A stretch of 14,613 bases of DNA from a virus (taxonomy: Duplodnaviria; Heunggongvirae; Uroviricota; Caudoviricetes): positions 1-14,613 of the IMG/VR virus record IMGVR_UViG_2778261465_000005; one strand, given 5' to 3'. This document shows, one piece after another, positions 1 to 14,613 of the stretch. The translations under genes were made by a program, and so were the position numbers. Each line of letters starts with the position of its first letter. The stretch's first letter is position 1. The notes under the pieces were generated by a model that saw nothing but the letters and a program-made list of their open reading frames with translations, was not told where the DNA came from and searched no databases.

Positions 1-252
1 TTAGTCTGCCAAGTCTTCCTCAGTCGCAACTGGGTAATTCCAAATATCAAAAAAAGCTATAGCCTCCTGCCATTTGCTCCATAAGTTATCAAGTACTTGT
101 GTAGGTTCCGTACTTTTAAAAACAGAATCAGCCGCATCACCGTTATGAACTTCCTCGTACAGTTCCATTATTAGCAGATTAACAAAGTACTGTTTCAACA
201 TTAATGCCTGATTACCTTCTTTCTGCTGGCTATCCTGCTTGATGATCTCCAT
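1..252 (-). CDS. Hypothetical acidic protein (83 aa) within the AT-rich island
   Basis: Complete ORF with stop at 1..3 on the minus strand; AT-rich like the neighbouring island; no family recognised. Confidence 0.35.
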   Translation of the reverse strand: MEIIKQDSQQKEGNQALMLKQYFVNLLIMELYEEVHNGDAADSVFKSTEPTQVLDNLWSKWQEAIAFFDIWNYPVATEEDLAD

Positions 253-1113
253 CGCCCGTACTAGGCACCTGATGATATCCGCTGCATCATTAACGCTCCA
301 TTCAGATCCGCGCTTATCTTTAGCTGATGAATTGGCTCTCTCAGCGCAAGCCTTTAAAGGCTAATAAAGGTAAAGTCTATTTTGTAGCTGTAGCGTTTTT
401 TTAAGTACTTCTTCTTGGCAAATGCCCCCTATGCTGCAACCAATGTGCCAATCGCAGAAATACCTGCCACCATTGCAACTCCAGTCTGAACCGTCAAAGC
501 CCCATATAATCATCACTCCTTATAAAATACTCTGTCAGTAATATCTAATAGGGGATTATGGTAAGCAATAAAATTTATATCCATATCAGTTTATAATCTT
601 TTCGGGCTGCTAACAGTGGATATCCAGTAGCTCTCACTCGCCACAGTGATGAATACCTGAGTATTCACTAACTTCTATCACAGAGGGCAGGGAAAACCAG
701 AAAAATGGCGCCCCAAAACATATATAATTAAAAGAGAAACATTTTCCGTCAAATGACATAGCTTCGACTAAATTCATTCTAAGCATACATAAAAACGAAG
801 CCCTCTTTTTTATGTATGCACTAATTTGAGCTAGAATTAATAAACACATATTGTTAACTGGATGCACTTAAATCTAGGACCAGCAAACAGTATTGATACA
901 ATCTCATTCACATCTACCAATTCACTTATCACAATAAGTTAAGTGAATTAACAACCCATCAAAAATACGCAAAAACATATCATCTTCAATGCATTACATT
1001 AAAAGAACCACTAAACACTTGTTTACTAAATATTTCACAAAGATAATTATAATAAACACCAACACCCCCACCAATAAAATATAAAAAAAAGGGGGGGGGT
1101 ATTGCAACAGAAA

Positions 1114-1899
1114 TTAAACTACCTGTTTCTTTTTATTGTCTGGAGATTTTTCATACTCCACTTTAGGTGCTGAGAAATTTAAATCTAGTGTTTGATTATT
1201 TGTCTTTCTATTTTTAGGTCTATTGACCAACCTCTCATCAATTAATGCAGCAGAAATATAATCATTAAATACTTTTATTTCCTGATAAATCTTATCAGCC
1301 AAAGCATCTATGCTTTTCCACATAGCGCTATTTTTAGAGGATGTATCTTTAAGCTCCCTATTAATTTCCTGATGAAATCCCCGTAACTGATTAATAAACT
1401 CCGATACTTTCCGCTCTAAAGAAGTTCTTGACTCCAAAATATAATCAATGTGCTCTTCCTTTATTTCCAAATCCCTAATTAGCTCTTTGTTTTTTTCTAA
1501 TAGTGCTTCTTCTTTAGCAACAAGTCGTAATATTTTCGTTTCATTAGCTGTCAGTTCAACTAGAGCTCTGTTAATTTCATCACGAATTAATAATTCATTG
1601 CGCTTAGAAGACGATGATTCATGTTGAATAATTTTTTCAATACAGTAATCTTTAGCTTGTTTTATTTCGCAGCATATACCCTTCCATTTATCCCTCTCTA
1701 ATCTAATTTTTCCCTGCAACTCCTTATTATTTTCTCTTTTTGTAATAAAAGATGAAAACCATAAAGAAAAGACGGCAACTGAAGGATACACCCACTGAGC
1801 AATATCGTCAGACGCTTGATAATAGTGCAATATTCTACTGGCACCAAGAGTTAATGCACCTGTCAATATGAATTGAAATGCCCCCATGAAACTTATCAT
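1114..1899 (-). CDS. Predicted membrane protein: two N-terminal hydrophobic helices plus a long charged coiled-coil-like C-terminus (261 aa); candidate effector of an accessory cassette
   Basis: N-terminus FMGAFQFILTGALTLGASRIL and VYPSVAVFSLWFSSFI are hydrophobic helix-like; the rest is rich in E/K/R/L heptad-like sequence. Lies 6 nt downstream of the 168-aa ORF on the same strand. Strongly AT-rich. Confidence 0.6.
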   Translation of the reverse strand: MISFMGAFQFILTGALTLGASRILHYYQASDDIAQWVYPSVAVFSLWFSSFITKRENNKELQGKIRLERDKWKGICCEIKQAKDYCIEKIIQHESSSSKRNELLIRDEINRALVELTANETKILRLVAKEEALLEKNKELIRDLEIKEEHIDYILESRTSLERKVSEFINQLRGFHQEINRELKDTSSKNSAMWKSIDALADKIYQEIKVFNDYISAALIDERLVNRPKNRKTNNQTLDLNFSAPKVEYEKSPDNKKKQVV

Positions 1900-1905
1900 A
1901 ATGAT

Positions 1906-2412
1906 TTAATCCCGCATTAGAAGAAAATCATGTTTAATACCTTTTGCTTTCATATGCTCACTGAAACTTACTGGAGCATTTTCTAAAAATCTCAGATTTG
2001 TATAGATCAATTGGTTTAGTAAGGGAGAGGAAAAATCTACAATTGATGGAAGGTAAAACTCAGTACTCAATGAAATATTGAGTTCATCATCTACACCTTG
2101 ACTCAACGAATGAGATTTTATACCAATGGCGTATTTATTGTGCTCATCAATTAAAGATAATATTTCTTCGTTAGAAAGCTTTTTCTCCAACTGTTCAAAA
2201 ACAAAACTTATGCTTAGTGAAATACAATAAGCATTTGGTCTTTTAAAAAGGCCATATATAATTTTTAAAGGTTCATCATCCTTATCCGATGAGAAATCGA
2301 ATCCACCAAAAGCATGATAATTATCATCATCAACAAGCTTAAACTTTTCTTCTTCAACATTTATTACACCTTCAACATTAGTTAGAAGAGTAAATAAATC
2401 GGAATTTTTCAT
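1906..2412 (-). CDS. Hypothetical soluble protein (168 aa), first gene of the accessory cassette
   Basis: ATG preceded by AAGGAG at about 8 nt spacing on the minus strand; AT-rich; no recognisable motif. Confidence 0.6.
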   Translation of the reverse strand: MKNSDLFTLLTNVEGVINVEEEKFKLVDDDNYHAFGGFDFSSDKDDEPLKIIYGLFKRPNAYCISLSISFVFEQLEKKLSNEEILSLIDEHNKYAIGIKSHSLSQGVDDELNISLSTEFYLPSIVDFSSPLLNQLIYTNLRFLENAPVSFSEHMKAKGIKHDFLLMRD

Positions 2413-2715
2413 TTAGTACTCCTTACAGTATCTACTTTAATATCATTTTACCGTTTAATATTACATCTTGCACTAAAAACAAAGTAGTCTACAGTATGCC
2501 ACCCGCAGCCTCTTTATGATTACTTATTGTCCATATTCCTGAAATTTCCCTTTGGTGCAATTGCATACCATTCCAGCCTCTTCCTCCAGTGCCACCATCC
2601 AGTATGTCACTGCATACCTACCGTTGATTATGCACATCAAGTTCTGTTCACTCTACAGCGCCACTACATTTTTCATAACACTCTTAACAGGCATATCATA
2701 TGTATGAGCAACGTC

Positions 2716-2775
2716 TTAGCAACTGAATGTACTATTTGTCACAATGTAATGAATAATTGCCTCTTTGTCCGTCAT
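2716..2775 (-). pseudogene. ren: ren remnant: only the first ~19 codons of a Ren-like ORF, ending in a premature stop
   Basis: Minus-strand ATG overlaps the P stop (ATGA) and encodes MTDKEAIIHYIVTNSTFSC*, which resembles the lambda Ren N-terminus as I recall it (MTGKEAIIHY...); the sequence then stops and AT-rich foreign DNA follows. Confidence 0.45.
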
Positions 2776-3473
2776 ACACTTGCTCCTTTCAGTCCGAACT
2801 TAGCTTTGATTTCTGCGATCTTCGCAAGAGCCTGTGCACGATTTAGAGGTCTACCGCCCATGACAGGAAGTTGTTTTACTGGTTCAGGTATAGCCTCACC
2901 ACGGTTAATTCGCGCGGTCATACAGGACAGTTCATCGGCAGCCTTGCGCCGTAATTCCGCGTCAGTCAGCATATTGGCCCGCATGTTCTGGTACAGGTTG
3001 GTAACCAGCCAGTAGTGGGCGTTTGACTGCCACGGGTAGGACTCCGCATCCGGGTATAGGCCACGTTTCCGGCAGTATTCGTAAACCATATCAACCAGCT
3101 CACTGGCGTTTGGCAGCCCGGCGGTAACGGATGCTTCTTCCCGGCACCAGGCAACAAACTGCCCGGGTGATGGCAGGAATGGTCGATTCTGCCGACGGGC
3201 TACGCGCATTCCTGCGTTAACCTGTTCCATTGTGGTGATCCCGTTTTCCCGGAAAGCCAGAACCCACTGGCGGCGGATTTCGTTCAGTTCGTTCTGGTCC
3301 CGGTTAGCCAAGCTCGCCGGGAAAGTTGCCAGTAACTGGCTGAACACACCATTGATGATCTGCGCTACCTGTTGTACCTGCGGCTTTTCGTCGTACTGTT
3401 CCGGCATGTTGTTGGCGATCCGACGCATCTGCTCACGGTCAAAGTTAACCATCTGTGCGGCGATGTTTTTCAT
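2772..3473 (-). CDS. P: Replication protein P (DnaB helicase loader), lambda P type
   Basis: 233-aa product (MKNIAAQMVNFDREQMRRIANNMPEQYDEK...AKIAEIKAKFGLKGASV) matches my recollection of lambda P almost residue for residue; start overlaps the O stop. Confidence 0.9.
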   Translation of the reverse strand: MKNIAAQMVNFDREQMRRIANNMPEQYDEKPQVQQVAQIINGVFSQLLATFPASLANRDQNELNEIRRQWVLAFRENGITTMEQVNAGMRVARRQNRPFLPSPGQFVAWCREEASVTAGLPNASELVDMVYEYCRKRGLYPDAESYPWQSNAHYWLVTNLYQNMRANMLTDAELRRKAADELSCMTARINRGEAIPEPVKQLPVMGGRPLNRAQALAKIAEIKAKFGLKGASV

Positions 3474-4489
3474 AGCTCCACCCCGTAAATCCAGTCAGTG
3501 TTCGTCAGGTCGAGTTTTGGTTTGCCGGCTGTCACGCCAGCCTGTTGCTTGTTACGGTTGATTTCGAGCTGGGTCCACTTGTCGCGTAGTTTGGCCGGAC
3601 TCAGCACGTTACCGGACCAGAAGTTGTCCTGGCAGGCCCAGCGGAACAGCACGCACATGTCGCGGTGGTTACGTCCGTCACGTTCACGCATCAGGCGGAT
3701 ATCGTTAGCCCACCCTGCAAAATTCGGTTTTCTGGCTGATGGCGCGATGGTCTTCACCATGTCAAACATCCACTCTGCGGCGGTCAGGTCTTCTGCTGTC
3801 CCCCACTTGCTGCCGCTCTGAATTGCAGCATCCGGTTTCACCACAGGAAGGTCGTTTTCTGGCTGGTCAGAGGATTCGCCAGAATTCTCGGACGAAAAAG
3901 GTTTTATATTGTCTTTTGTTAGTTTGTCTTTTGTGTTTACCTGATTCGGGTAAGCGCCTTTACCTGATTTGGGTAAATTTTTCTTACCTGATTCAGGTAA
4001 ATTTACCTCTTTCAGGTAAACTTTATTTTTCTTTCCTGATTCGGGTAATGTTGACCATTCACTGACCACATTATTGATGCCGATATTCCGCCCGCTCTGA
4101 ATAAAAATCCCACGCTTTACCAGAACACTTTTTGCAGCAGAACACTTGTGCGGCAATATCCCGGTCAATTCGGAAAGTTGCTCGTTGCTCACCCAATCCA
4201 GTTTTTTATTAAAGCCATATGTTTTGCGCATGACAGCCAGGAAGACCAGAAGCTGGTGCTGTGTTAATCCGGCCAGCATTACAGCTTCCAGCAACTCATT
4301 TGCAATGCGCGTATAACCATCATCGAGATCTGCCACGCGCGGCTCCTTTTGTGCCACATCCGGCACTGGAAAATTGAATATCTCAGCAGTGTTTGCCATA
4401 ATTCCTCCCGCAATGAGTGCGTTACGATTTGCACCTGAAAGTCGGTTCTGTTCCCGCAGACCGACTTTCGCCATTTCTGAATCTGTCAT
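3470..4489 (-). CDS. O: Replication initiator O-like protein: divergent N-terminal iteron-binding domain, lambda-like C-terminal domain
   Basis: N-terminal motifs ADLDDGYTRIANELLEA and RKTYGFNK are typical of lambdoid O proteins; the C-terminal ~90 aa (AEWMFDMVKTIAPSARKPNFAGWANDIRLMRERDGRNHRDMCVLFRWACQDNFWSG...) resembles lambda O; ori iterons lie inside the gene. Confidence 0.85.
   Translation of the reverse strand: MTDSEMAKVGLREQNRLSGANRNALIAGGIMANTAEIFNFPVPDVAQKEPRVADLDDGYTRIANELLEAVMLAGLTQHQLLVFLAVMRKTYGFNKKLDWVSNEQLSELTGILPHKCSAAKSVLVKRGIFIQSGRNIGINNVVSEWSTLPESGKKNKVYLKEVNLPESGKKNLPKSGKGAYPNQVNTKDKLTKDNIKPFSSENSGESSDQPENDLPVVKPDAAIQSGSKWGTAEDLTAAEWMFDMVKTIAPSARKPNFAGWANDIRLMRERDGRNHRDMCVLFRWACQDNFWSGNVLSPAKLRDKWTQLEINRNKQQAGVTAGKPKLDLTNTDWIYGVEL
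3937..4047. repeat. Replication origin iterons: five ~17-bp palindromic repeats (TTACCTGAtTCAGGTAA-like) next to an AT-rich tract (3900..3935), inside the O gene
   Basis: Repeats at 3937-3953, 3960-3976, 3984-4000, 4003-4019 and a degenerate copy at 4032-4047, spaced 19-29 bp; this matches the lambda ori architecture (iterons then AT-rich region within O). Confidence 0.7.
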
Positions 4490-5025
4490 ATTGCCCCCAG
4501 CATGGTGGTAACCATCGCCATTAATGGACCAGCCAGATCCGGGTCCACACGAAACATCGACACAATACCTTCACTCATTTCCTTCAGTTTCTGGTGGCGT
4601 GGTGCGTTGAGAATGACCGCCTGCTTTGCCTCACTGAGTTCCTTTTCCATTTCAGCCAACCGGGCCATGAAGCTATCCTGCTCAGCCAGGTGGCTGCGAT
4701 ATTCCAGCGGTAGTACCGCCAGAATTGCCGGGGTCAGTTCATGCACGTTATTTCGGTATTTTTCAGAATCGAATTTGTTATCGAGGAAGCGGAACAGCTT
4801 CTGGCGTGCACGACTGACATCATCAGGGAAATCGATGGTGCCGCCGCCCTGCTCCCGATACTCATTCACAATGAGTGCGGCAACAACATCCTGATTATCT
4901 GCAGCCGACCAGGCGCGAACGGCATCACGGATTTTTTCGTGGCCTGCCGCCTGTTTTGTTTGAGAACGATTTATCAGCGCAGCCGGGGTAATTCCGCTAG
5001 TCTGTTGGTATGTAATTGGTTGCAT
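4486..5025 (-). CDS. YdaT-like protein (occupies the cII position of the rightward early operon)
   Basis: Position between the cro-like gene and O; motifs NEYREQGGG and LTPAILAVLPLEYRSHL resemble Rac prophage YdaT as I remember it; AGGA Shine-Dalgarno; ATGA overlap with the O start. Confidence 0.5.
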   Translation of the reverse strand: MQPITYQQTSGITPAALINRSQTKQAAGHEKIRDAVRAWSAADNQDVVAALIVNEYREQGGGTIDFPDDVSRARQKLFRFLDNKFDSEKYRNNVHELTPAILAVLPLEYRSHLAEQDSFMARLAEMEKELSEAKQAVILNAPRHQKLKEMSEGIVSMFRVDPDLAGPLMAMVTTMLGAI

Positions 5026-5106
5026 AATTAATTCCTTTAGTTTGAATTGACTGTTAATCAGTCTGTTAAGTTGATTGCTTATTGTTAAAGAGCGTGAAAT
5101 GGAAAT

Positions 5107-5337
5107 TTAAGCTGCGTTCTTTTCGGTGTGTGGAAACAACTTCGGAAGGTCCGGGCGAATCTGGTATGCCTTCACAACTCCACCAGTAGCCGTAACAATG
5201 CTGCCGACATGTTCAGGGGATACCTTTGCTTTGTTGTGAAGCCACTTATAGACGGCCTGCTGTGAAACTTCGCAGGCATCGCCCAGTTTCTTTTGTGAAC
5301 CAACGATATTGATCGCTGTTTTGATTGCTGGGTTCAT
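5107..5337 (-). CDS. Cro-like small HTH regulator (YdaS-like family)
   Basis: 76-aa ORF divergent from the repressor, strong GGAGG Shine-Dalgarno; helix-turn-helix-like segment QKKLGDACEVSQQAVYKWL. Confidence 0.6.
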   Translation of the reverse strand: MNPAIKTAINIVGSQKKLGDACEVSQQAVYKWLHNKAKVSPEHVGSIVTATGGVVKAYQIRPDLPKLFPHTEKNAA

Positions 5338-5441
5338 AACAACCTCCGTGGTTAATCTGAATCAAGATTAAAACTATGGTTGTTTTTAGTCAACAACCAT
5401 TTTCGTTTGATGTAATAAAACCCTGGTTGTACATTTGGTCT
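5338..5441. promoter_or_regulatory. OR-like divergent control region between the cro-like and cI-like genes, with a 25-bp palindrome ATGGTTGTT-N7-AACAACCAT (5376..5400)
   Basis: Perfect 9-bp inverted arms seen directly; AACAAC/GGTTGT motifs recur here and downstream of the cassette terminator; no Shine-Dalgarno ahead of the repressor ATG. Confidence 0.5.
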
Positions 5442-6131
5442 ATGAAAACAACACTCTCAGAAAGACTTAAAGAAGCCAGATTAGCGCGAGGCCTTACACA
5501 AAAGGCGCTTGGGGATTTGGTCGGGGTTAGCCAAGCTGCTATTCAGAAAATCGAAACAGGGAAAGCTAACCAAACAACTAAAATCGTGGAGATCGCGAAC
5601 GCTTTGGGTGTGCGCGCAGAATGGTTATCTTCTGGCGTTGGAAATATGTCAGACAGTACAGTGCAACCAATACAATCAACTGTCAGCCATTCCAAATACT
5701 TTAAGATTGACGTTCTTGATATAGAAGTGAGTGCCGGGCCGGGAGTCATCAACCGTGAGTTTGTAGAAGTTCTACGCTCGGTTGAGTACTCGTTTGACGA
5801 TGCTCGTCACATGTTCGATGGTAGGAAGGCAGAAAATATCCGCATCATTAACGTGCGTGGTGACAGCATGTCAGGAACGATCGAACCAGGTGATCTGCTG
5901 TTCGTTGATATCACGGTTAAATCTTTCGACGGTGATGGTATCTATGCGTTTCTGTATGACGACACAGCCCATGTAAAGCGCCTGCAAATGATGAAGGATA
6001 AGCTGCTGGTTATCTCTGATAACAAAAGCTACTCACCGTGGGACCCGATCGAGAAAGATGAGATGAACCGGGTATTTATCTTCGGGAAAGTTATTGGGAG
6101 CATGCCGCAGACGTATAGGAAGCATGGATAG
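5442..6131 (+). CDS. Prophage repressor, cI-like (N-terminal XRE-type HTH plus C-terminal S24 LexA-like autopeptidase); not lambda immunity
   Basis: MKTTLSERLKEARLARGLTQKALGDLVGVSQAAIQKIE is an HTH; the C-terminus has GDSM (catalytic Ser) and a downstream VKRL (Lys) typical of S24 peptidases. The track ORF begins at 5376, but the HTH starts at the ATG at 5442. Confidence 0.85.
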   Translation: MKTTLSERLKEARLARGLTQKALGDLVGVSQAAIQKIETGKANQTTKIVEIANALGVRAEWLSSGVGNMSDSTVQPIQSTVSHSKYFKIDVLDIEVSAGPGVINREFVEVLRSVEYSFDDARHMFDGRKAENIRIINVRGDSMSGTIEPGDLLFVDITVKSFDGDGIYAFLYDDTAHVKRLQMMKDKLLVISDNKSYSPWDPIEKDEMNRVFIFGKVIGSMPQTYRKHG

Positions 6132-6199
6132 TACCAATTAAAAATTATCAACCGGGCATTGTGCTCATTCAGTAAAACAACTTAATTATTCATTTTAGA

Positions 6200-7273
6200 A
6201 TGGAGAACTTAATGGATACTTTAAAATATGAGAAATTCTCTGATTTTGATCACAATGACCCATTTTTTGACTCTTTAAAAAAAGATTATAAAGAGTTTCC
6301 TCTTTGGTTAGAAAAAAAAGCCAGAGAAGGAGAATCAGCTTATGTGCTCTATGATGACAAGCATAAAATCGAAGGTTTTATGTATCTAAAAGAAAATGAT
6401 GATGCAAATGACATTAATCCAGCGCTCCCACCAGGACGTCATCTAAAGATAGGAACATTCAAATTTGAATCTAAAGGCACCCTTCGCGGACAACGATTTC
6501 TAAAAAAAGCGTTTGACCATGCATTTTCATCAAAATCTGATGATATTTATGTTACTGTTTTCGACAAACACGTCCATCTAATAAAACTTTTCCAAACGTA
6601 CGGATTTTACATTCATGGTGAAAAAGAAACACATAACGGGAAAGAGTTTGTATATGCGAGGTCTTTGCATGAGCCTTATGGTGATATTTTATTAGATTAC
6701 CCTCGAATAATGACATCAAGGGCCAACAAATATTTACTGGCGATTTATCCCGAATATCACACTAGACTATTCCCTGATTCAAAACTTGTAAATGAATCAC
6801 CAGATATTGTCAAAGATATATCCCATGCTAACAGCATTCATAAAATTTACATATGTGGAATGCGTTCTGTGATGGGAATGAAAAGAGGAGATATCATTGT
6901 CATCTATAGAACCGGAGACAAAAAAGGGCCAGCTCGCTATCGTTCTGTAGCCAGTACATTATGTGTAGTTGAGAGCGTAAAAAATATTTCTGAATTTTTA
7001 AGCGAAGATAGTTTTGTAGACTATTGTATTCGTTTTAGCGTATTTTCTGAAGATGAACTCAGAAAAATCTATAAAGAACGTCGATACCCTTTCATTATAA
7101 GATTCACATACAATCTGTCTTTGCCAAAGAGACCCAATCGTGCTATTTTAATAGATCATGTGGGGCTAAATGGTTCGCGTGCATTCCGATGGAGTCACTT
7201 TAAACTCACAAATGAGCAGTTCTTAAAGATCATCGAGTTAGGCAAGATAAATGAAAGTTTTATTATCCATTAA
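6200..7273 (+). CDS. Hypothetical 357-aa protein, AT-rich cargo gene; tentatively an N-terminal GNAT-like fold with an unassigned C-terminal domain (possibly PUA-like)
   Basis: Directly downstream of the repressor on the same strand with no terminator between; markedly lower GC than its flanks. An alternative start at 6212 has a better Shine-Dalgarno (GGAGA). Domain guesses are from motif impression only. Confidence 0.6.
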   Translation: MENLMDTLKYEKFSDFDHNDPFFDSLKKDYKEFPLWLEKKAREGESAYVLYDDKHKIEGFMYLKENDDANDINPALPPGRHLKIGTFKFESKGTLRGQRFLKKAFDHAFSSKSDDIYVTVFDKHVHLIKLFQTYGFYIHGEKETHNGKEFVYARSLHEPYGDILLDYPRIMTSRANKYLLAIYPEYHTRLFPDSKLVNESPDIVKDISHANSIHKIYICGMRSVMGMKRGDIIVIYRTGDKKGPARYRSVASTLCVVESVKNISEFLSEDSFVDYCIRFSVFSEDELRKIYKERRYPFIIRFTYNLSLPKRPNRAILIDHVGLNGSRAFRWSHFKLTNEQFLKIIELGKINESFIIH

Positions 7274-7628
7274 GCCTGAGTTTGCAGAAAAAATATTGAA
7301 CGGAACAAAGCGGTTCGAGTTTCGTAAAGGTATATTCAAAAATCCGCAAATTAGCACCGTTGTTATTTATGCCACGATGCCATTAGGTAAAGTTGTTGGT
7401 CAATTCCGTATTGAATCAATACTAAGTGACGAACCGGAATCTCTTTGGAAAAAGACGGAAAAACACGCAGGTATTTCTAAGCAATTTTATGACTCATATT
7501 ATTCAGGTAGAGAAAAGGCCTACGCAATAAAAATTGGTGAAGTGGAAAGATATAAAGAACCAATTCCTATCTCTGCTCTAGGGAGTAATATTAAGCCACC
7601 ACAATCATATCTTTACCTACCTGCGTAA
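7251..7628 (+). CDS. ASCH-like (PUA-superfamily) small protein, 125 aa; second gene of the cargo cassette
   Basis: N-terminus MKVLLSIKPEFAEKILNGTKRFEFRK resembles the ASCH-domain signature; start overlaps the upstream gene by 23 nt; AT-rich. Confidence 0.55.
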   Translation: MKVLLSIKPEFAEKILNGTKRFEFRKGIFKNPQISTVVIYATMPLGKVVGQFRIESILSDEPESLWKKTEKHAGISKQFYDSYYSGREKAYAIKIGEVERYKEPIPISALGSNIKPPQSYLYLPA

Positions 7629-7632
7629 GAAT

Positions 7633-7660
7633 CCCGGCCACCGTGCCGGGTTTTCTTTTG
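7633..7660 (+). terminator. Intrinsic terminator closing the cI + cargo operon
   Basis: GC stem CCCGGC-(caccgt)-GCCGGG followed by TTTTCTTTT, starting 5 nt after the stop at 7626-7628. Confidence 0.65.
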
Positions 7661-7771
7661 TCCCCTCATCACACAAACCGTTCAAATAACCACCACGACA
7701 TCCCTTCAGTTATCGCTATGCGATGCAAGTCACAAAATAAATCCATCCTAAATACAACCAGTTATATCTAA

Positions 7772-7850
7772 AACAACCAGTAAAACAACTTTTGTTGTTG
7801 ACGATAAAACAACTATAGTTTTAAATAAATTCATCGCAACAACACAACGA
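7772..7850. promoter_or_regulatory. OL/pL-like candidate: repeated AACAAC/GTTGTT operator-like motifs including the palindrome AACAAC-tttt-GTTGTT (7784..7799) and a sigma70-like promoter (TTGACG 7798-7803, 18-nt spacer, TAAATA 7822-7827)
   Basis: Motifs read directly from the sequence; position upstream of the leftward early operon and sharing the repeat motif with OR supports an operator role. Confidence 0.35.
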
Positions 7851-8103
7851 TACGGCAACCACCTGATTCACCGTTGCGATGACCGCTTAGATCCGCAGCT
7901 TGAATTTCAGCAGGCTCCGGGGAGTGCGAGGGGTGAAGCGGACGCGTGAACGTCGGTGTGACCAGCTGAAATCAACTCAACACTTCATACCTCAGTCGCT
8001 TCAACGAGGCGGCTTAGTTATGACAACCGGCGGCCATCCACCGCCTGAATACGCGCAGAAGTCTATATATGTTCAGCAGCCCAGCTTACGGGCAGGAGTT
8101 TTT

Positions 8104-8310
8104 ATGGTTCATCAACATTACGGAACGCAGACCGTTAATCGCGGTGCGGTCATGCCAGGAATGCTGGTCAAACACAAAGATGGTACCTGGACTGCATCAG
8201 CTAATTTACGCGGACGGCTATATCTGCATCGCGGCATCGAGCGCACTTATACCCGTGATTTGCTCGTGGAAGTTTTTCTCGACGGACGCGGCAACGGCCT
8301 GAATCACTAA
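8104..8310 (+). CDS. Small protein (68 aa) at the kil position upstream of gam; possibly a Kil-type host division inhibitor
   Basis: ATG at 8104 with AGGAG about 7 nt upstream; the track ORF from 7900 uses a TTG start and is probably over-extended. Functional call is positional only. Confidence 0.4.
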
Positions 8311-8385
8311 TCCCCTTTCCTGTTTTCCTAATCAGCCTGGCATTTCGCGGGCGATATTTTCACAGCCATTTTCAGGAGGTCAGCC

Positions 8386-8682
8386 ATGAACGCTTATTAC
8401 ATTCAGGATCGTCTTGAGGCTCAGAGCTGGGCGCGTCACTACCAGCAGATCGCCCGTGAAGAGAAAGAGGCAGAACTGGCAGACGACATGGAAAAAGGCC
8501 TGCCCCAGCACCTGTTTGAATCGCTATGCATCGATCATTTGCAACGCCACGGGGCCAGCAAAAAAGCCATTACCCGTGCGTTTGATGACGATGTTGAGTT
8601 TCAGGAGCGCATGGCAGAACACATCCGGTACATGGTTGAAACCATTGCTCACCATCAGGTTGATATTGATTCAGAGGTATAA
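8386..8682 (+). CDS. gam: Gam (RecBCD inhibitor), short GamS form only (98 aa)
   Basis: [21 protein letters not shown]...[10 protein letters not shown] matches my recollection of lambda Gam from its internal Met; AGGAGG Shine-Dalgarno; in-frame stop at 8329 prevents a longer GamL form. Confidence 0.9.
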
Positions 8683-8687
8683 AACGG

Positions 8688-9473
8688 ATGAGTACAGCAC
8701 TCGCAACGCTGGCTGGGAAGCTGGCTGAACGTGTCGGCATGGATTCTGTCGACCCACAGGAACTGATCACCACTCTTCGCCAGACGGCATTTAAAGGTGA
8801 TGCCAGCGATGCGCAGTTCATCGCATTACTGATCGTTGCCAACCAGTACGGCCTTAATCCATGGACGAAAGAAATTTACGCCTTTCCTGATAAGCAGAAT
8901 GGCATCGTTCCGGTGGTGGGCGTTGATGGCTGGTCCCGCATCATCAATGAAAACCAGCAGTTTGATGGCATGGACTTTGAGCAGGACAATGAATCCTGTA
9001 CATGCCGGATTTACCGCAAGGACCGCAATCATCCGATCTGCGTTACCGAGTGGATGGATGAATGCCGCCGCGAACCATTCAAAACCCGCGAAGGCAGAGA
9101 AATTACGGGGCCGTGGCAGTCGCATCCCAAACGGATGTTACGGCATAAAGCCATGATTCAGTGTGCCCGTCTGGCCTTCGGATTTGCGGGTATCTATGAC
9201 AAGGATGAAGCCGAGCGCATTGTCGAAAATACCGCATACACTGCAGAACGTCAGCCGGAACGCGACATCACTCCGGTTAACGATGAAACCATGCAGGAGA
9301 TTAACACTCTGCTGATTGCCCTGGACAAAACATGGGATGACGACTTATTGCCGCTCTGTTCCCAGATATTTCGCCGCGACATTCGCGCATCGTCAGAACT
9401 GACACAGGCCGAAGCAGTGAAAGCTCTTGGATTCCTGAAACAGAAAGCCTCTGAACAGAAGGTGGCTGCATGA
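8688..9473 (+). CDS. bet: Bet (Red-beta single-strand annealing recombinase)
   Basis: 261-aa product [38 protein letters not shown]... matches my recollection of lambda Bet. Confidence 0.92.
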
Positions 9474-10150
9474 CACCGGACATTATCCTGCAGCGTACCG
9501 GGATCGACGTGAGAGCTGTCGAACAGGGGGATGATGCGTGGCACAAATTACGGCTCGGCGTCATCACCGCTTCAGAAGTTCACAACGTGATAGCAAAGCC
9601 CCGCTCAGGAAAGAAGTGGTCTGACATGAAAATGTCCTACTTCCACACCCTGCTGGCTGAGGTTTGCACCGGTGTGGCTCCGGAAGTTAATGCTAAAGCG
9701 CTGGCCTGGGGAAAACAGTACGAGAACGACGCCAGAACCCTGTTTGAGTTCACTTCCGGCGTAAATGTTATTGAATCCCCGATCATCTATCGCGACGAAA
9801 GTATGCGCACCGCCTGCTCTCCCGATGGTTTATGCAGTGACGGCAATGGCCTTGAGCTGAAATGCCCGTTTACCTCCCGGGATTTCATGAAGTTCCGGCT
9901 CGGTGGTTTCGAGGCCATAAAGTCGGCTTACATGGCCCAGGTGCAGTACAGCATGTGGGTGACGCGAAAAGATGCCTGGTACTTTGCCAACTATGACCCG
10001 CGTATGAAGCGTGAAGGCCTGCATTATGTCGTGGTTGAGCGGGATGAAAAGTACATGGCGAGTTTTGACGAGATGGTGCCGGAGTTCATCGAAAAAATGG
10101 ACGAGGCACTGGCTGAAATTGGTTTTGCATTTGGGGAGCAATGGCGATGA
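9470..10150 (+). CDS. exo: Exo (Red-alpha 5'-3' exonuclease)
   Basis: 226-aa product [40 protein letters not shown]... matches my recollection of lambda Exo; overlaps the bet stop. Confidence 0.92.
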
Positions 10151-10308
10151 AGCATCCTCACGATAATATCCGGGTAGGCACGATCACTTTCGTCTACTCC
10201 GTTACAAAGCGAGGCTGGGTATTTCCCGGCCTTTCTGTTATCCGAAATCCCCTGAAAGCACAGCGGCTGGCTGAGGAGATAAATAATAAACGGGGGCTGT
10301 ATGACTGA
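10147..10308 (+). CDS. Small hypothetical protein (53 aa), translationally coupled between exo and the methyltransferase
   Basis: ATG overlaps the exo stop (ATGA) and its TGA falls just inside the methyltransferase start; [53 protein letters not shown]. Below the ORF-track length cutoff. Confidence 0.4.
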
Positions 10309-10858
10309 TTTCACCGGAAGCAATACTCCTGCCGAACATCGCGACAGCTGGCGCACACCACCAGAGATTTTTGCTGCGCTTAATGCAGAGTTCGTTTTTC
10401 AACTTGATGCTGCCGCCAGCGAAAAAAACCGACTATGTCGGCTTTTTATCTCACAGGAGCAGAACACATTAACCACTTCATGGCCTGAAGCAATGGGATA
10501 TGCCTCTGGTTATGTCTGGTTGAATCCACCATACAGCAATATTTCCCCTTTTGTGAAAAAGGCAGCCACTGAAAACAAATTCAGTAGTGTGGGATGTGTA
10601 ATGTTATTGCCTGCTGACACATCTGTCGGATGGTTTCATGAAGCGATACAAACCGCCAGTGAGGTCAGATTCATCACGGCAGGACGACTGGCATTTATTA
10701 ACCCACTCACTGAGAAACCCGTCAGTGGAAATAATAAAGGCTCGATGCTCATTATCTGGCACCCATACCCCCGTACACACTGCCACTTTACGACCGTTGA
10801 TCGTGGAGAGTTGATGGCGTTCGGCTCAAGGATTCTTGCCCGTCGGGAGGCTGCATGA
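10301..10858 (+). CDS. Phage DNA N6-adenine methyltransferase (Dam-like orphan MTase)
   Basis: 185-aa product with the NPPY catalytic motif (VWLNPPYSNI), typical of amino-methyltransferases; size fits the phage N6-adenine MTase family. Confidence 0.75.
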   Translation: MTDFTGSNTPAEHRDSWRTPPEIFAALNAEFVFQLDAAASEKNRLCRLFISQEQNTLTTSWPEAMGYASGYVWLNPPYSNISPFVKKAATENKFSSVGCVMLLPADTSVGWFHEAIQTASEVRFITAGRLAFINPLTEKPVSGNNKGSMLIIWHPYPRTHCHFTTVDRGELMAFGSRILARREAA

Positions 10859-10938
10859 CAACCACGGAATGCATTTTTCTGGCAGCGGGCTTCATATTCT
10901 GTGTGCTTATGCTTGCCGACATGGGACTTGTTCAATGA
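10855..10938 (+). CDS. Possible 27-aa hydrophobic micro-protein (MTTTECIFLAAGFIFCVLMLADMGLVQ)
   Basis: ATGA overlaps at both ends (with the MTase stop and with the next ORF's ATG at 10935); a single hydrophobic helix. Could be a chance ORF. Confidence 0.25.
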   Translation: MTTTECIFLAAGFIFCVLMLADMGLVQ

Positions 10939-11150
10939 CACCTCAGCAGGAAAACGCCCTTCGCAGCATTGCCCGTCAGGCTAATTCTGAAATCAAAAAA
11001 GCCAGACAGCAGTTTCCGGATAAAAACGTCGATGACATTTGCCGTAGCGTACTAAAGAAGCACCGCGAAACGGTAACGCTGATGGGATTCACACCGACTC
11101 ATTTAAGCCTGGCGATCGGCATGTTAAACGGCGTCTTTAAGGAACGGTGA
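10935..11150 (+). CDS. Hypothetical protein (71 aa from the ATG at 10935; the track ORF from 10836 uses a TTG start)
   Basis: ORF in the leftward early operon; no family recognised. Confidence 0.45.
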   Translation: MTPQQENALRSIARQANSEIKKARQQFPDKNVDDICRSVLKKHRETVTLMGFTPTHLSLAIGMLNGVFKER

Positions 11151-11173
11151 ACATGAAAAGCAAAATCATCAGG

Positions 11174-11198
11174 GAGCTACAGGCTCCTTTTTTATTGT
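11174..11198 (+). terminator. Weak intrinsic-terminator-like hairpin (GGAGC-tacag-GCTCC followed by TTTTTT)
   Basis: Seen directly; short stem, so possibly an attenuator rather than a full stop; it sits inside a possible 29-aa ORF (11153..11242). Confidence 0.3.
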
Positions 11199-11248
11199 TC
11201 GCATTCATCCTCAAGCGTATTAACCAACAATTCAGGGATTAATGGAAG

Positions 11249-11467
11249 ATGGCAGACATCATTGATTCAGCATCAGAAATCGAAGAATTACAGCGCAATA
11301 CAGCAATAAAAATGCGTCGTCTGAACTACCAGACTGTATCCGCAACTCATTGTTGTGAGTGTGGCGATCCGATAGATGAGCGAAGACGCCTGGCTGTTCA
11401 GGGTTGTCGGACTTGTGCAAGTTGCCAGGAGGAGATCGAACTTAAGAACAAACAATGGGGACTGTGA
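11249..11467 (+). CDS. TraR/DksA-family C4 zinc-finger protein (72 aa)
   Basis: CxxC...CxxC pattern (CCECGDPIDERRRLAVQGCRTCASC) and size typical of phage TraR-like proteins. Confidence 0.65.
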   Translation: MADIIDSASEIEELQRNTAIKMRRLNYQTVSATHCCECGDPIDERRRLAVQGCRTCASCQEEIELKNKQWGL

Positions 11468-11514
11468 TGGCCTCAAAGCAGCAAATTTCAACATCGTCCA
11501 ACTGAGGTGTAAAA

Positions 11515-11793
11515 ATGTTCAGAATCATTTTTCCTAACACCTGGTACGTCGACCACCACGGCACTCCCTGCAAAATCCTGCGTTCTACCCACAACAAAGT
11601 TCACTACATCCGAAAAGGCAGAACATGTATCGCCAGCATGTTCCGCTTTAATCATGACTTTGAACCTGTGAATAAAGCTGATGCAGATCGGATAGCAGAA
11701 GAGATCGAAACGGCAGAACACATTAAGAAGTTACGTGACATGCGTTCAAAAAGCAGAGGTAACCATGGAATCATACAGCCTCACACTCGATGA
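11515..11793 (+). CDS. Hypothetical protein (92 aa) upstream of xis
   Basis: GAGGTG Shine-Dalgarno; 3' end overlaps the xis start; no family recognised. Confidence 0.4.
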   Translation: MFRIIFPNTWYVDHHGTPCKILRSTHNKVHYIRKGRTCIASMFRFNHDFEPVNKADADRIAEEIETAEHIKKLRDMRSKSRGNHGIIQPHTR

Positions 11794-12115
11794 GGCCTGT
11801 CAGTTTCTTAAGATATCCAGACCAACCGCCACCAACTGGATACGAACAGGCCGCCTACAGGCAACACGCAAAGACCCCACTAAACCAAAATCTCCTTACC
11901 TCACAACGCGACAAGCCTGCATTGCGGCGCTTCAGTCTCCGCTGCATACTATCAAGGTGAGCGCGGGTGATGGCATAACAGAGGAAAGAAAATGTCACTC
12001 TTCCGCAGAAGTGAAATATGGTACGCCAGTTTCACATTGCCGAACGGTAAAAGATTTAAACAGTCTCTTGGAACAAAGGACAAAAGGCAGGCGACAGAGC
12101 TCCATGACAAGCTAA
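11765..12115 (+). CDS. xis: Excisionase (P22-type Xis, 116 aa)
   Basis: [38 protein letters not shown]... has an HTH and matches my recollection of P22 Xis; directly upstream of and overlapping int. Confidence 0.75.
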
Positions 12116-13155
12116 AGGCTGAAGCATGGCGGGTCAGCAAACTTGGTGAAATACCTGATATGACGTTTGAGGAAGCGTGTGTCAGGTGGCTCGAAGAGAA
12201 AGCACATAAGAAATCACTGGACGATGACAAAAGCCGGATCGGATTCTGGCTTCAACATTTCGCAGGAATGCAACTAAGAGACATTACTGAATCAAAAATT
12301 TATTCAGCAATGCAGAAAATGACGAACCGGCGTCATGAGGAAAACTGGAAACTCAGGGCAGAAGCATGCAGAAAAAAAGGGAAACCTGTTCCAGAATACA
12401 CGCCAAAACCAGCGTCCGTTGCAACGAAGGCTACGCATCTTTCATTTATAAAGGCCCTGCTAAGAGCCGCAGAGCGTGAATGGAAAATGCTCGATAAGGC
12501 ACCAATTATTAAAGTGCCTCAACCAAAGAATAAACGGATCCGCTGGCTGGAGCCCCATGAAGCACAAAGGCTGATTGATGAATGTCCGGAGCCATTAAAG
12601 TCTGTTGTTGAATTTGCACTGGCAACAGGCTTAAGACGCTCGAACATCATCAACCTTGAATGGCAACAAATAGATATGCAGCGCCGGGTGGCATGGATAA
12701 ACCCGGAAGAGAGTAAATCAAACCGCGCAATTGGCGTTGCGCTGAATGATACTGCATGTCGCGTATTGAAAAAACAAATCGGTAATCATCACTGTTGGGT
12801 ATTTGTGTACAAGGAAAGCTGTACCAAACCAGACGGAACGAAAGCGCCAACAGTAAGGAAGATGCGGTATGACGCAAACACAGCCTGGAAAGCGGCTCTG
12901 AGACGGGCTGGTATTGATGATTTCAGATTTCACGACTTGAGACACACCTGGGCAAGTTGGCTGGTTCAAGCCGGAGTCCCGTTGTCAGTGTTACAGGAAA
13001 TGGGAGGCTGGGAGTCTATCGAAATGGTTCGTCGATATGCTCACCTTGCACCTAATCACCTTACCGAACACGCACGGCAAATAGACTCGATCCTGAACCC
13101 ATCGGTCCCAAATTTGTCCCAGTCAAAAAATAAGGAAGGTACTAATGATGTGTAA
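11992..13155 (+). CDS. int: Tyrosine integrase (P22-type Int, thrW-specific)
   Basis: 387 aa; catalytic motifs [11 protein letters not shown] and [15 protein letters not shown]; the N-terminus [40 protein letters not shown] resembles P22 Int as I recall it; sits next to thrW, the known P22 attachment site. Confidence 0.9.
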
Positions 13156-13169
13156 CTTATTGATTTAAA

Positions 13170-13215
13170 TGGTGCCGATAATAGGAGTCGAACCTACGAC
13201 CTTCGCATTACGAAT
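13170..13215. other. Inferred attR (prophage-host junction) overlapping the 3' part of thrW
   Basis: Integrase is adjacent to the tRNA 3' end; phages integrating in tRNA genes regenerate the 3' end from attP. Exact core limits cannot be set without the attL copy. Confidence 0.4.
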
Positions 13216-13245
13216 GCGCTGCTCTACCAACTGAGCTATATCGGC
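13170..13245 (-). tRNA. thrW: tRNA-Thr (anticodon CGU)
   Basis: Reverse complement reads GCCGATATAGCTCAGTTGGTAGAGCAGCGCATTCGTAATGCGAAGGTCGTAGGTTCGACTCCTATTATCGGCACCA: cloverleaf with anticodon CGT and encoded CCA. Confidence 0.9.
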
Positions 13246-13359
13246 CCTGAAAGGACATGTTCACGAACGTGAATCACGGTGGACAAGGTTAAAACTAACC
13301 GGGCGATGCGTCAATGGCCTTGTGAATCAAATGGCTACTTTTGCATCACCCGGTTTTAT

Positions 13360-14613
13360 TTACGCACGAATGGTGTAATCACCAATGCCGATCCACTTGT
13401 AAGTGGTCAGTGCTTCCAGCCCCATTGGGCCACGCGCGTGGAGTTTTTGTGTGCTTACCGCCACTTCCGCACCCAGTCCAAACTGGCCGCCGTCGGTAAA
13501 ACGCGTAGAGGCGTTAACATAAACAGCGGACGAATCCACTTCGTTAACAAAACGCTGGGCGTTGCGCATATCGCGGGTCAGGATCGCATCGGAGTGTTGT
13601 GTGCCGTGTTCACGAATATGGGCGATGGCATCGTCAAGATCGCTGACGATTTTGACGTTCAAATCTAATGACAGAAACTCATCGTCATACTCTTCGGCTT
13701 TAACAGCAACCACCTTCGCAGGGCCTGCCTGCAACTGCGCCAGTGCAGCTGCATCAGCGTGTAACGTCACGCCACTTTCCGCCATTTGTTTGCTTAATGC
13801 GGGCAGGAAGCTATCGGCGATATTTTTATTCACCAGCAACGTTTCTACCGTATTACACGTGCTCGGACGCTGAGTTTTCGCGTTGACGATTACTTTCAGG
13901 GCTTCAGCGATCTCTGCACTTTCATCAACATAAATATGGCATACGCCTATACCACCAGTGATCACCGGGATTGTCGACTGCTCGCGGCACAGTTTATGCA
14001 AACCAGCTCCACCACGCGGGATCAGCATGTCGATGTATTTATCCATACGCAGCATTTCACTGACCAGCGCACGGTCAGGATTATCAATCGCCTGCACGGC
14101 ACCCGCCGGTAAGCCACAGGATTTCAGGGCGTCCTGAATCACCGCCACCGTTGCCGCGTTAGTGCGACAGGTTTCTTTGCCACCACGCAGGATCACCGCA
14201 TTACCGGTTTTCAGGCACAGCGAAGCGACATCAACCGTCACGTTCGGGCGCGCTTCATAAATCACGCCAATAACCCCCAGCGGTACGCGACGACGCTCAA
14301 GACGCAGGCCGCTGTCCAGTACGCCGCCATCGATTACCTGCCCCACCGGATCGGCGAGGTTGCACACCTGACGTACATCGTCGGCAATGCCTTTCAGCCG
14401 TGCGGGCGTCAGTGCCAGACGGTCAAGCATCGCTTCGCTAAGGCCATTGGCTCGCGCGTCAGCAACATCCTGGGCGTTAGCGTTGAGGATGATTTCGCTT
14501 TGTGCTTCCAGTTCATCGGCGATTTTTTCCAGCACGCGATTTTTTTCGCGGCTGGAGAGTTGCGCTAATTTATACGAGGCTTGCTTCGCGGCAATGCCCA
14601 TTTGTTCCAGCAT
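13360..14613 (-). CDS. proA: Gamma-glutamyl phosphate reductase (host gene, complete, 417 aa)
   Basis: Product [50 protein letters not shown]... matches E. coli ProA as I recall it; the start codon is the last three bases of the window. Confidence 0.95.

Follow-up and report, generated by a model that had tools for sequence, protein, structure and literature searches.

A GNAT-EVE/ASCH gene pair (GevT/GevA, candidate system PDC-M11) in the post-repressor slot of a lambdoid prophage, a putative acetylation toxin–antitoxin module

What does a temperate phage carry directly behind its repressor gene, and what might this cargo do in the lysogen? This question is raised by a two-gene cassette (positions 6132–7632) in a 14,613-nucleotide (nt) stretch of Caudoviricetes DNA (IMG/VR record IMGVR_UViG_2778261465_000005, positions 1–14,613; the whole stretch is hereafter referred to as the window). 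The window holds a lambdoid prophage, inserted at tRNA-Thr(CGU) (thrW) and adjoining proA, in which the plus strand reads, in order, a cI-like repressor, an 80-nt spacer, gevT, gevA, a terminator, an operator cluster, and kil-gam-bet-exo onward to int. A preliminary description of this DNA, made from the sequence alone, had pointed to the pair as AT-rich, horizontally acquired cargo in the slot that holds rexAB in lambda, and had not recognised it as any named system. The features on which the following argument depends are:

5107–5337, divergent from cI: cro
5442–6131, plus strand: cI-like repressor (HTH_3, E 6.5e-13; Peptidase_S24, E 1.5e-18), a 690-nt 'S24 family peptidase' gene in RefSeq
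6132–6211, plus strand: spacer between cI and gevT, part of the cassette, with a ribosome-binding site (RBS), GGAG, at 6201–6204
6212–7273, plus strand: gevT (PDC-M11A), encoding a GNAT-EVE protein of 353 amino acids (aa)
7251–7628, plus strand: gevA (PDC-M11B), encoding a 125-aa ASCH-domain protein
7633–7660, plus strand: intrinsic terminator of the cI operon, with a hairpin at 7633–7650 plus a T-run
7760–7830, no strand assigned: OL/pL-like operator cluster, in which the AAAACAAC half-site occurs three times (7770, 7782, 7806)

The profile searches and structure prediction that had been proposed for the pair, together with the PADLOC families, provided it with an identity, so that it can no longer be regarded as an unrecognised system. 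The gevT product matched PADLOC family PDC-M11A (E 2.1e-133, residues 6–356 on profile positions 10–356 of 357) as well as phrog_6345 (E 1e-186), and the gevA product matched PDC-M11B (E 6.8e-52, residues 1–123 on positions 1–122 of 132). The corresponding operon was described in Bell et al. 2020 (BMC Biol 18:159; PMC7641849; Wolf and Koonin among the authors), according to whom EVE domains that follow a GNAT domain as its C-terminal fusion form a distinct cluster, often with an N-terminal PIN domain, and almost all GNAT-EVE operons also encode an ASCH protein, often with an AAA_17 ATPase. These operons were found to lie commonly in prophages, in gamma-proteobacteria, and were predicted to be toxin–antitoxin systems; the authors name Iyer et al. 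2013 as the first to have described them. Moreover, phage PhiR47_2 (GenBank PV340567.1) carries a 99.8% identical cassette annotated as 'GevT toxin' and 'GevA antitoxin'. A 2026 preprint on O157:H7 reports the pair simply as PDC-M11, and a 2025 Genome Research paper on lambdoid phages does not mention it. By its architecture, its prophage location and its full-length hidden Markov model (HMM) matches, the cassette is a member of the (PIN)-GNAT-EVE + ASCH operons, i.e., the already catalogued GNAT-EVE/ASCH module known as PADLOC candidate PDC-M11 or GevT/GevA.

The open reading frames (ORFs) listed for the pair (6200..7273 and 7251..7628, both on the plus strand) overlap by 23 nt. While the preliminary description was right about two overlapping genes and about the 125-aa product of the second, the 357 aa given for the first had to be reduced to 353 aa, with ATG 6212 as the start codon. 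This start was chosen because the homologues measure 350–357 aa, with the listed ones aligning from that Met, and because in an alignment of 8 loci the ATG is, together with its RBS, the sole conserved upstream feature; RefSeq likewise begins gevT at ATG 6212.

GevT carries an N-terminal GNAT acetyltransferase fold (residues ~1–152; 6212–6667), as is found in GNAT-EVE + ASCH operons, followed by a PUA-like EVE domain of ~185 residues (residues ~170–353; 6719–7270). A Pfam search gave no above-threshold match for the gevT product. In a Foldseek comparison, however, GevT matched the modified-base-binding N-terminal domain of McrB (6p0f, E 5.4e-5) and ZmASCH (5guq, E 6.4e-5), both of which must lie in its C-terminal half. 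The predicted PUA-like fold of the C-terminal domain is therefore solid at the level of the structure model, and its more specific designation as EVE rests partly on Bell et al.; the Pfam EVE family was found below threshold in four of ten family members (best E 0.0078) and also in longer relatives. An attempt at sequence-profile proof that the C-terminal half is ASCH-like failed, with only a weak hhalign match to ASCH (40% probability over 38 columns) and nothing meaningful from a PDB profile search.

The best matches of the GNAT domain are PaiA/SpeG-type spermidine/spermine acetyltransferases (1tiq, E 1.3e-5; 2fl4 and 9dsb, E 0.17), with NCBIfam SpmdActasePaiA at E 0.016. These matches would suit an ordinary small-molecule acetyltransferase (for a polyamine or an antibiotic), carried as a moron with an accessory ASCH protein and without a role in genetic conflict. 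Nevertheless, this is very improbable, since the family matches are weak (15 bits vs. a 250-bit cut-off), the module is almost exclusively found on mobile elements, and the obligatory EVE/PUA fusion and ASCH partner, as well as the PIN and TIR fusions described below, are foreign to metabolic acetyltransferases.

GevA is an ASCH protein (Pfam E 2.5e-8; structure model with a pLDDT of 96), and gevA is thus the adjacent ASCH-domain gene that characterises GNAT-EVE + ASCH operons. Its GxKxxExR octapeptide (G18, K20, E23 and R25) is invariant across 26 homologues, and the cleft residues Y40, T42, Q118 and S119, equivalent to Tyr47, Thr49, Gln127 and Ser128 of ZmASCH (PDB 5GUQ/5GUS), are invariant in homologues as well. 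Mutagenesis of ZmASCH has indicated that cleft residues Tyr47, Lys53 and Ser128 matter, and one difference is that Lys53 aligns to G46 of GevA, with K47 adjoining. Octapeptide classes and a catalytic dyad of ASCH proteins have been defined in a 2026 preprint, in which 19 ASCH proteins, including ZmASCH and the GKER type, were reported to strip N4-acetylcytidine (ac4C) from tRNA in vitro, with the Lys and the Glu/Thr being essential for this removal. With both Lys and Glu present, GevA falls into the GKER octapeptide class (i.e., that of ZmASCH, TthASCH, EOLA1 and TRIP4). A YqfB-type ac4C nucleoside amidohydrolase was ruled out, because in our alignment the octapeptide of GevA holds Glu at the position where that of YqfB (GK[T/S]R) holds Thr24. 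The possibility that ZmASCH, of the close relatives of GevA the only one studied biochemically, itself stems from a GNAT-EVE operon was also discarded: the 375-aa product of its upstream neighbour is unrelated to GevT (hhalign probability of 0.1%) and has no PADLOC match, so that the biochemistry of ZmASCH is not simply transferable to GevA.

As to how the pair came to lie behind the repressor, the cassette stands out by a GC content of 0.349 over 6132–7632 vs. 0.490 on either flank, in agreement with its earlier depiction as AT-rich, and is 100% identical to a copy in E. coli PSS-16. Backbone homology to sister phages stops at the cI stop codon (6127–6132) and at the start of the terminator (7626–7633), and between these same boundaries sister phages with a more than 96% identical cro-cI region bear different cargo or a deletion scar, which upholds horizontal acquisition and marks the slot as a genuine hotspot of swappable cargo. 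The PhiR26_1 slot contains a BamE-like lipoprotein gene and the PhiR70_1 slot three unknown genes. In PhiR5_1 (L008, 1455–3028), which has the same cro-cI, the slot contains a HipA_2 kinase and a DUF3037 protein (PADLOC candidates PDC-M66A/B, E 6e-15 and 4e-16) that are labelled HipA toxin and HipD antitoxin in GenBank. All of these alternative cargos are AT-rich (GC 0.35–0.40). The PhiR34_1 slot (L009, 1333–1460) keeps window positions 6132–6187 and ~76 nt of the gevA end (7553–7628), joined at a short microhomology. Since the gevT leader and gevA end remain, this slot was rejected as an empty ancestral state, and its remnants point to a microhomology-mediated deletion that removed both genes in one event. 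The slot of phage Turner displays the same coverage pattern as that of PhiR34_1 and is apparently not empty either.

With the same orientation as cI and the terminator of the cI operon as its boundary, the cassette indeed sits in the equivalent of the rexAB slot. This placement recurs among viral contigs, for which the best 80 hits were sampled; because enterobacterial prophages dominate this sample, the fractions given here are indicative only. A repressor gene was found upstream and on the same strand in 74 of 79 viral loci, with seven distinct, unrelated repressor types and a median gap of ~69 nt. In 76 of the 79 viral loci bearing gevT, gevA lies directly 3′ of it with an overlap of 23–35 nt, the other three being truncated or frameshifted in gevT. 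P2/186-like prophages carry the pair between CI, which is accompanied by an unknown 355-aa gene, and the integrase. The conserved 355-aa protein, encoded between CI and gevT (Klebsiella 186-like prophage, L005–L007, 6909–7976), may be a further component or independent cargo; it was dismissed as a GevT paralogue (BLASTP E 1.9, no Pfam or PADLOC match).

Whether the slot also determines expression was approached through the signals surrounding the cassette. A terminator scan of 6132–6211 found no terminator-like plus-strand site between cI and gevT, and the RNA fold of this spacer was no better than that of its shuffles (z +0.88), as expected from the earlier claim that no terminator intervenes. 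A dedicated cassette promoter or operator was rejected, as promoter-like sites numbered 7 vs. 8.8 expected from shuffles and no upstream motif or promoter was conserved among 8 diverse loci, in which only the RBS and ATG are kept. An RNA antitoxin was likewise rejected, as an Rfam search of the cassette found neither this nor any further RNA element. Because of the lack of both a conserved promoter of its own and a terminator in front, we infer that gevTA is probably read through from the repressor promoter and hence made in the lysogen, like rexAB; the co-expression proposed in the preliminary description was in this respect a reasonable one.

Downstream of gevA, the hairpin at 7633–7650 plus T-run (6 G-C pairs, a 6-nt loop, –15.2 kcal/mol, z –3.35) forms a fold that was equalled by none of 200 shuffles, and the terminator noticed earlier is therefore a strong one. 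The identical hairpin stands at the end of the HipA, the lipoprotein and the three-gene cargo (L008, L010 and L011), however, and since it is common to every alternative cargo it belongs to the phage backbone and not, as had been assumed, to the cassette. Seven copies of the 8-mer AAAACAAC occur in the window vs. 1.08 expected, clustering at OR (5379 and 5445) and at 7770/7782/7806. Together with AACAAC/GTTGTT dyads at 7784–7799, this shared clustering supports an OL/pL-like region (7770–7813) downstream of the terminator, where it had been suspected. A lone AAAACAAC operator half-site is also present in the cI-gevT spacer (6174–6181). It is contained in a 14-mer, CAGTAAAACAACTT, that is found both in this spacer (6172–6185) and in the OL region (7778–7791). 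The spacer copy, which is not conserved among other gevT-bearing phages, could be a stray cI half-site before gevT or a recombination footprint.

How the two proteins relate to each other can be approached from their wider family. An exhaustive HMMER search yielded 1421 clusters at 50% identity, and copies of the cassette itself with an identity of ≥99% were found in 275 of 5426 complete E. coli genomes as well as 8 phage records, with each exact protein sequence on at least 1000 contigs. Module carriers comprise lambdoid, P2/186-like, P4-like and filamentous prophages, and in a Shewanella chromosomal islet the ASCH gene and the gevT homologue are on opposite strands, an arrangement more in keeping with independent enzymes than with an obligate complex. 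Among the longer relatives, a PIN domain was weakly detected in one of two scanned ~500-aa proteins. Moreover, P0306 (632 aa) is a PIN-GNAT-EVE-ASCH fusion with a C-terminal ASCH domain that is clearly of the GevA type, P0324 and P0338 (615–621 aa) have an N-terminal ASCH domain, a long linker (presumably PIN) and then GNAT-EVE, and P0244 (532 aa) is a TIR-GNAT-EVE protein. In these four fused sequences, the GNAT motifs are visibly kept on inspection, and the GxKxxExR octapeptide and/or the GNAT motifs are retained. PIN and TIR are typical effector domains of conflict systems, and the single-chain fusions indicate that ASCH and GNAT-EVE work together.

Several variants of the module were observed in passing. 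In Vibrio cholerae (L002–L004, 8001–9953 plus flanks), a TniQ/Csy2-4 CRISPR-associated transposon bears among its cargo a three-gene variant that encodes a GNAT-EVE protein, an ASCH protein of 134 aa and a kinase-like AAA_17/18 protein (PADLOC VakA-like, E 6e-9), with a PD-Lambda-1 homologue on one side and a Dsr1-like SIR2 protein on the other. In the Vibrio harveyi group (L094–L096, 8001–9953), this three-gene variant ends filamentous (Rep_trans/Zot) prophages right after zot, and filamentous prophages are thus a fourth kind of temperate phage carrying the module. Finally, in E. coli SCU-485 (L101, 381–1801), a frameshifted gevT pseudogene accompanies a gevA that is disrupted too, with only a 186-nt ORF left, which reflects either a decay affecting both genes or errors in the assembly.

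Our preferred reading, to which we give an even chance, is that GevTA is a lysogen-made acetylation toxin–antitoxin module in the variable cI slot, in which GevT is toxic and GevA counteracts it, resulting in exclusion and/or addiction. GevT would act as a growth-arresting acetyltransferase effector, the EVE domain of which would direct the GNAT domain to a nucleic acid with a modified base, tRNA or another RNA being the most plausible. GevA, translationally coupled to GevT, would counteract GevT, and an infecting phage or the loss of the prophage would tip the balance towards GevT, causing abortive infection (i.e., exclusion) and/or prophage addiction. The form of antagonism that we favour over sequestration would act on the substrate (through deacetylation, in the manner in which DarG reverses DarT, or through competition), because the Lys/Glu octapeptide and nucleic-acid cleft of GevA are invariant and are kept in single-chain fusions, because the ASCH gene can be separately transcribed (as in Shewanella), and because the 19 ASCH proteins of the 2026 preprint are reported to remove ac4C from tRNA in vitro. 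The joint loss of gevTA in PhiR34_1 and the frameshifted gevT next to an intact gevA in another locus (L029) are what a toxin–antitoxin pair predicts, and, along with the GenBank annotation, they are the hints from which toxin–antitoxin behaviour is predicted for GevT and GevA.

The joint loss in PhiR34_1 would equally suit a classical type II toxin–antitoxin or addiction module, in which GevT, like TacT and AtaT, acetylates charged tRNA and GevA binds GevT or acts as a repressor of the operon, serving prophage stabilisation only. Such a module would also agree with the toxin/antitoxin label in GenBank, the overlapping and translationally coupled genes, the HipA-type toxin–antitoxin pair as alternative cargo of the slot, and the suggestions by Bell et al. 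(PMC7641849) of an aminoacyl-tRNA target and a regulatory role for ASCH, including their report of HTH-ASCH fusions in alpha-proteobacteria. We nevertheless consider it unlikely. GevA lacks a DNA-binding module of the ribbon-helix-helix (RHH) or helix-turn-helix (HTH) type and is encoded downstream of the toxin, a pure binder has no need of an invariant catalytic octapeptide and nucleic-acid cleft, and covalent ASCH-GNAT-EVE fusions poorly fit a labile antitoxin. Moreover, the defence-island and TIR/PIN-fusion contexts point to conflict between mobile elements.

A bolder reading would make GevT and GevA a writer and an eraser: GevT, led to a modified nucleic acid by its EVE domain, would N-acetylate a base (e.g., cytidine at N4) or an amine close by, in tRNA, other RNA or DNA, and thereby stop growth, GevA would be the dedicated deacetylase that undoes this, and superinfection would be aborted by the module, which the cI transcript would supply. 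We regard this as doubtful, and the searchable literature yielded no demonstrated nucleic-acid acetylation toxin of this kind.

Acetylation of nucleic acid might alternatively serve the phage itself, with GNAT-EVE acetylating a base and ASCH reading or editing it, for anti-restriction or for control of the lysis–lysogeny decision. Bell et al. (PMC7641849) cite a proposal of DNA-base acetylation by Iyer et al. 2013 and suggest that GNAT-EVE may guard phages from host restriction-modification; furthermore, the module has two domains of the modified-base-reader type, and the prophage also encodes a Dam methyltransferase. Its place in the repressor operon, however, implies expression in the established lysogen, while anti-restriction is needed at DNA entry and during lytic growth. 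The slot is also dispensable and interchangeable with toxin–antitoxin-like cargo, and the cassette is found in non-phage defence islands, transposon cargo and chromosomal islets as well, making such a phage-serving modification system quite unlikely.

A number of observations weigh against GevTA as an acetylation toxin–antitoxin module. The GNAT domain is nearest to protein N-terminal acetyltransferases and PaiA/SpeG-type polyamine acetyltransferases, and neither a tRNA-acetylating toxin (AtaT or TacT) nor an ac4C writer was among the GNAT matches listed. According to the 2026 preprint, ZmASCH is inactive on free ac4C and without significant effect in vivo, and it had earlier been reported as a single-stranded RNA RNase; in addition, this closest solved relative of GevA is not encoded beside a GevT homologue. 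PDC-M11 has the status of a candidate in PADLOC, and none of the GNAT-EVE modules has been characterised according to Bell et al. 2020 (PMC7641849). A literature search found neither a paper behind the GevT/GevA toxin/antitoxin label in GenBank nor a published toxicity, neutralisation or phage-resistance experiment on the module, the anti-phage role of which is putative. Finally, co-transcription of cI and gevTA is deduced from the arrangement of signals in the DNA, and the fractions among viral contigs, coming from the best 80 hits in mostly enterobacterial prophages, are indicative.

Both GevTA and lambda RexA/RexB lie downstream of cI, co-oriented with it and before OL/pL, with expression in the lysogen being probable for GevTA, and the proposed outcome of GevTA, i.e., exclusion by growth arrest, would be analogous. 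RexA is a DNA-binding protein and RexB a membrane protein. In their place, GevTA has an acetyltransferase fused to a reader domain, together with an ASCH protein that is soluble, and no homology to RexA/RexB was found, since PDC-M11A/B are the only PADLOC families matched at E ≤ 1 and the folds are GNAT plus PUA and ASCH, respectively; the earlier statement that the cargo is unrelated to rexAB is thereby confirmed.

AtaT-AtaR, TacT-TacA, KacT-KacA and ItaT-ItaR are likewise two-gene mobile modules with a GNAT protein as the presumed toxin. In these GNAT/RHH type II systems, however, the antitoxin is encoded upstream and is an RHH/DUF1778 protein, whereas GevA is a downstream ASCH protein and the gene upstream of gevT is the phage repressor. 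Furthermore, GevT carries an EVE domain that the GNAT/RHH toxins do not have, and no AtaT or TacT structure was among the GevT structural neighbours listed. DarT/DarG, an enzymatic writer–eraser toxin–antitoxin pair that plays an anti-phage role, is an analogue in logic only, in that a transferase marks nucleic acid and the mark is taken off by a partner whose catalytic pocket is conserved; it uses ADP-ribose chemistry and unrelated folds, whereas acetyl chemistry is proposed for GevT/GevA by analogy.

Some other features of the prophage deserve mention. A second AT-rich two-gene cargo (1114–2412, minus strand, GC 0.316), flanked by replication gene P and the nin region, may be another moron or defence slot. 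Its 261-aa and 168-aa proteins gave no convincing Pfam or PADLOC match, with weak ZorA/DruC coiled-coil-like (E 0.025–0.1) and sub-threshold MCRA similarities. The ~440 nt from the terminator and OL/pL region to kil (7661–8103; kil at 8104–8310) contain no annotated N-like gene in RefSeq or the phage records, and the early-left operon may use N-independent antitermination. The gene at 4486–5025 (minus strand), which occupies the cII position and is annotated as cII in phage records, encodes a YdaT_toxin-domain protein (PF06254, E 1.7e-28) and is not a lambda-type CII. The Dam-type DNA N6-adenine methyltransferase mentioned above is a phage enzyme encoded in the early-left operon (10301–10858, plus strand; PF05869, E 2e-56).

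As a discovery the module itself adds little, having been described computationally in 2013 and 2020, included in PADLOC and named in GenBank. What is added here is its exact slot (from the cI stop codon to the cI-operon terminator), the hotspot behaviour of this slot, and the regular placement of the module behind seven repressor types. The module is very common (found in 5% of complete E. coli genomes, O157:H7 among them), and the residual interest lies in its function and chemistry. Owing to its strict post-repressor placement, in a slot that otherwise carries other toxin–antitoxin-like cargo, it offers a clean test case, easy to clone, for two questions, i.e., whether repressor-operon morons generally serve for exclusion and whether GNAT-EVE/ASCH is an acetyl writer–eraser pair with nucleic acids as its target. 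If the latter were true, GevTA would be the acetyl counterpart of DarTG in the slot of RexAB.

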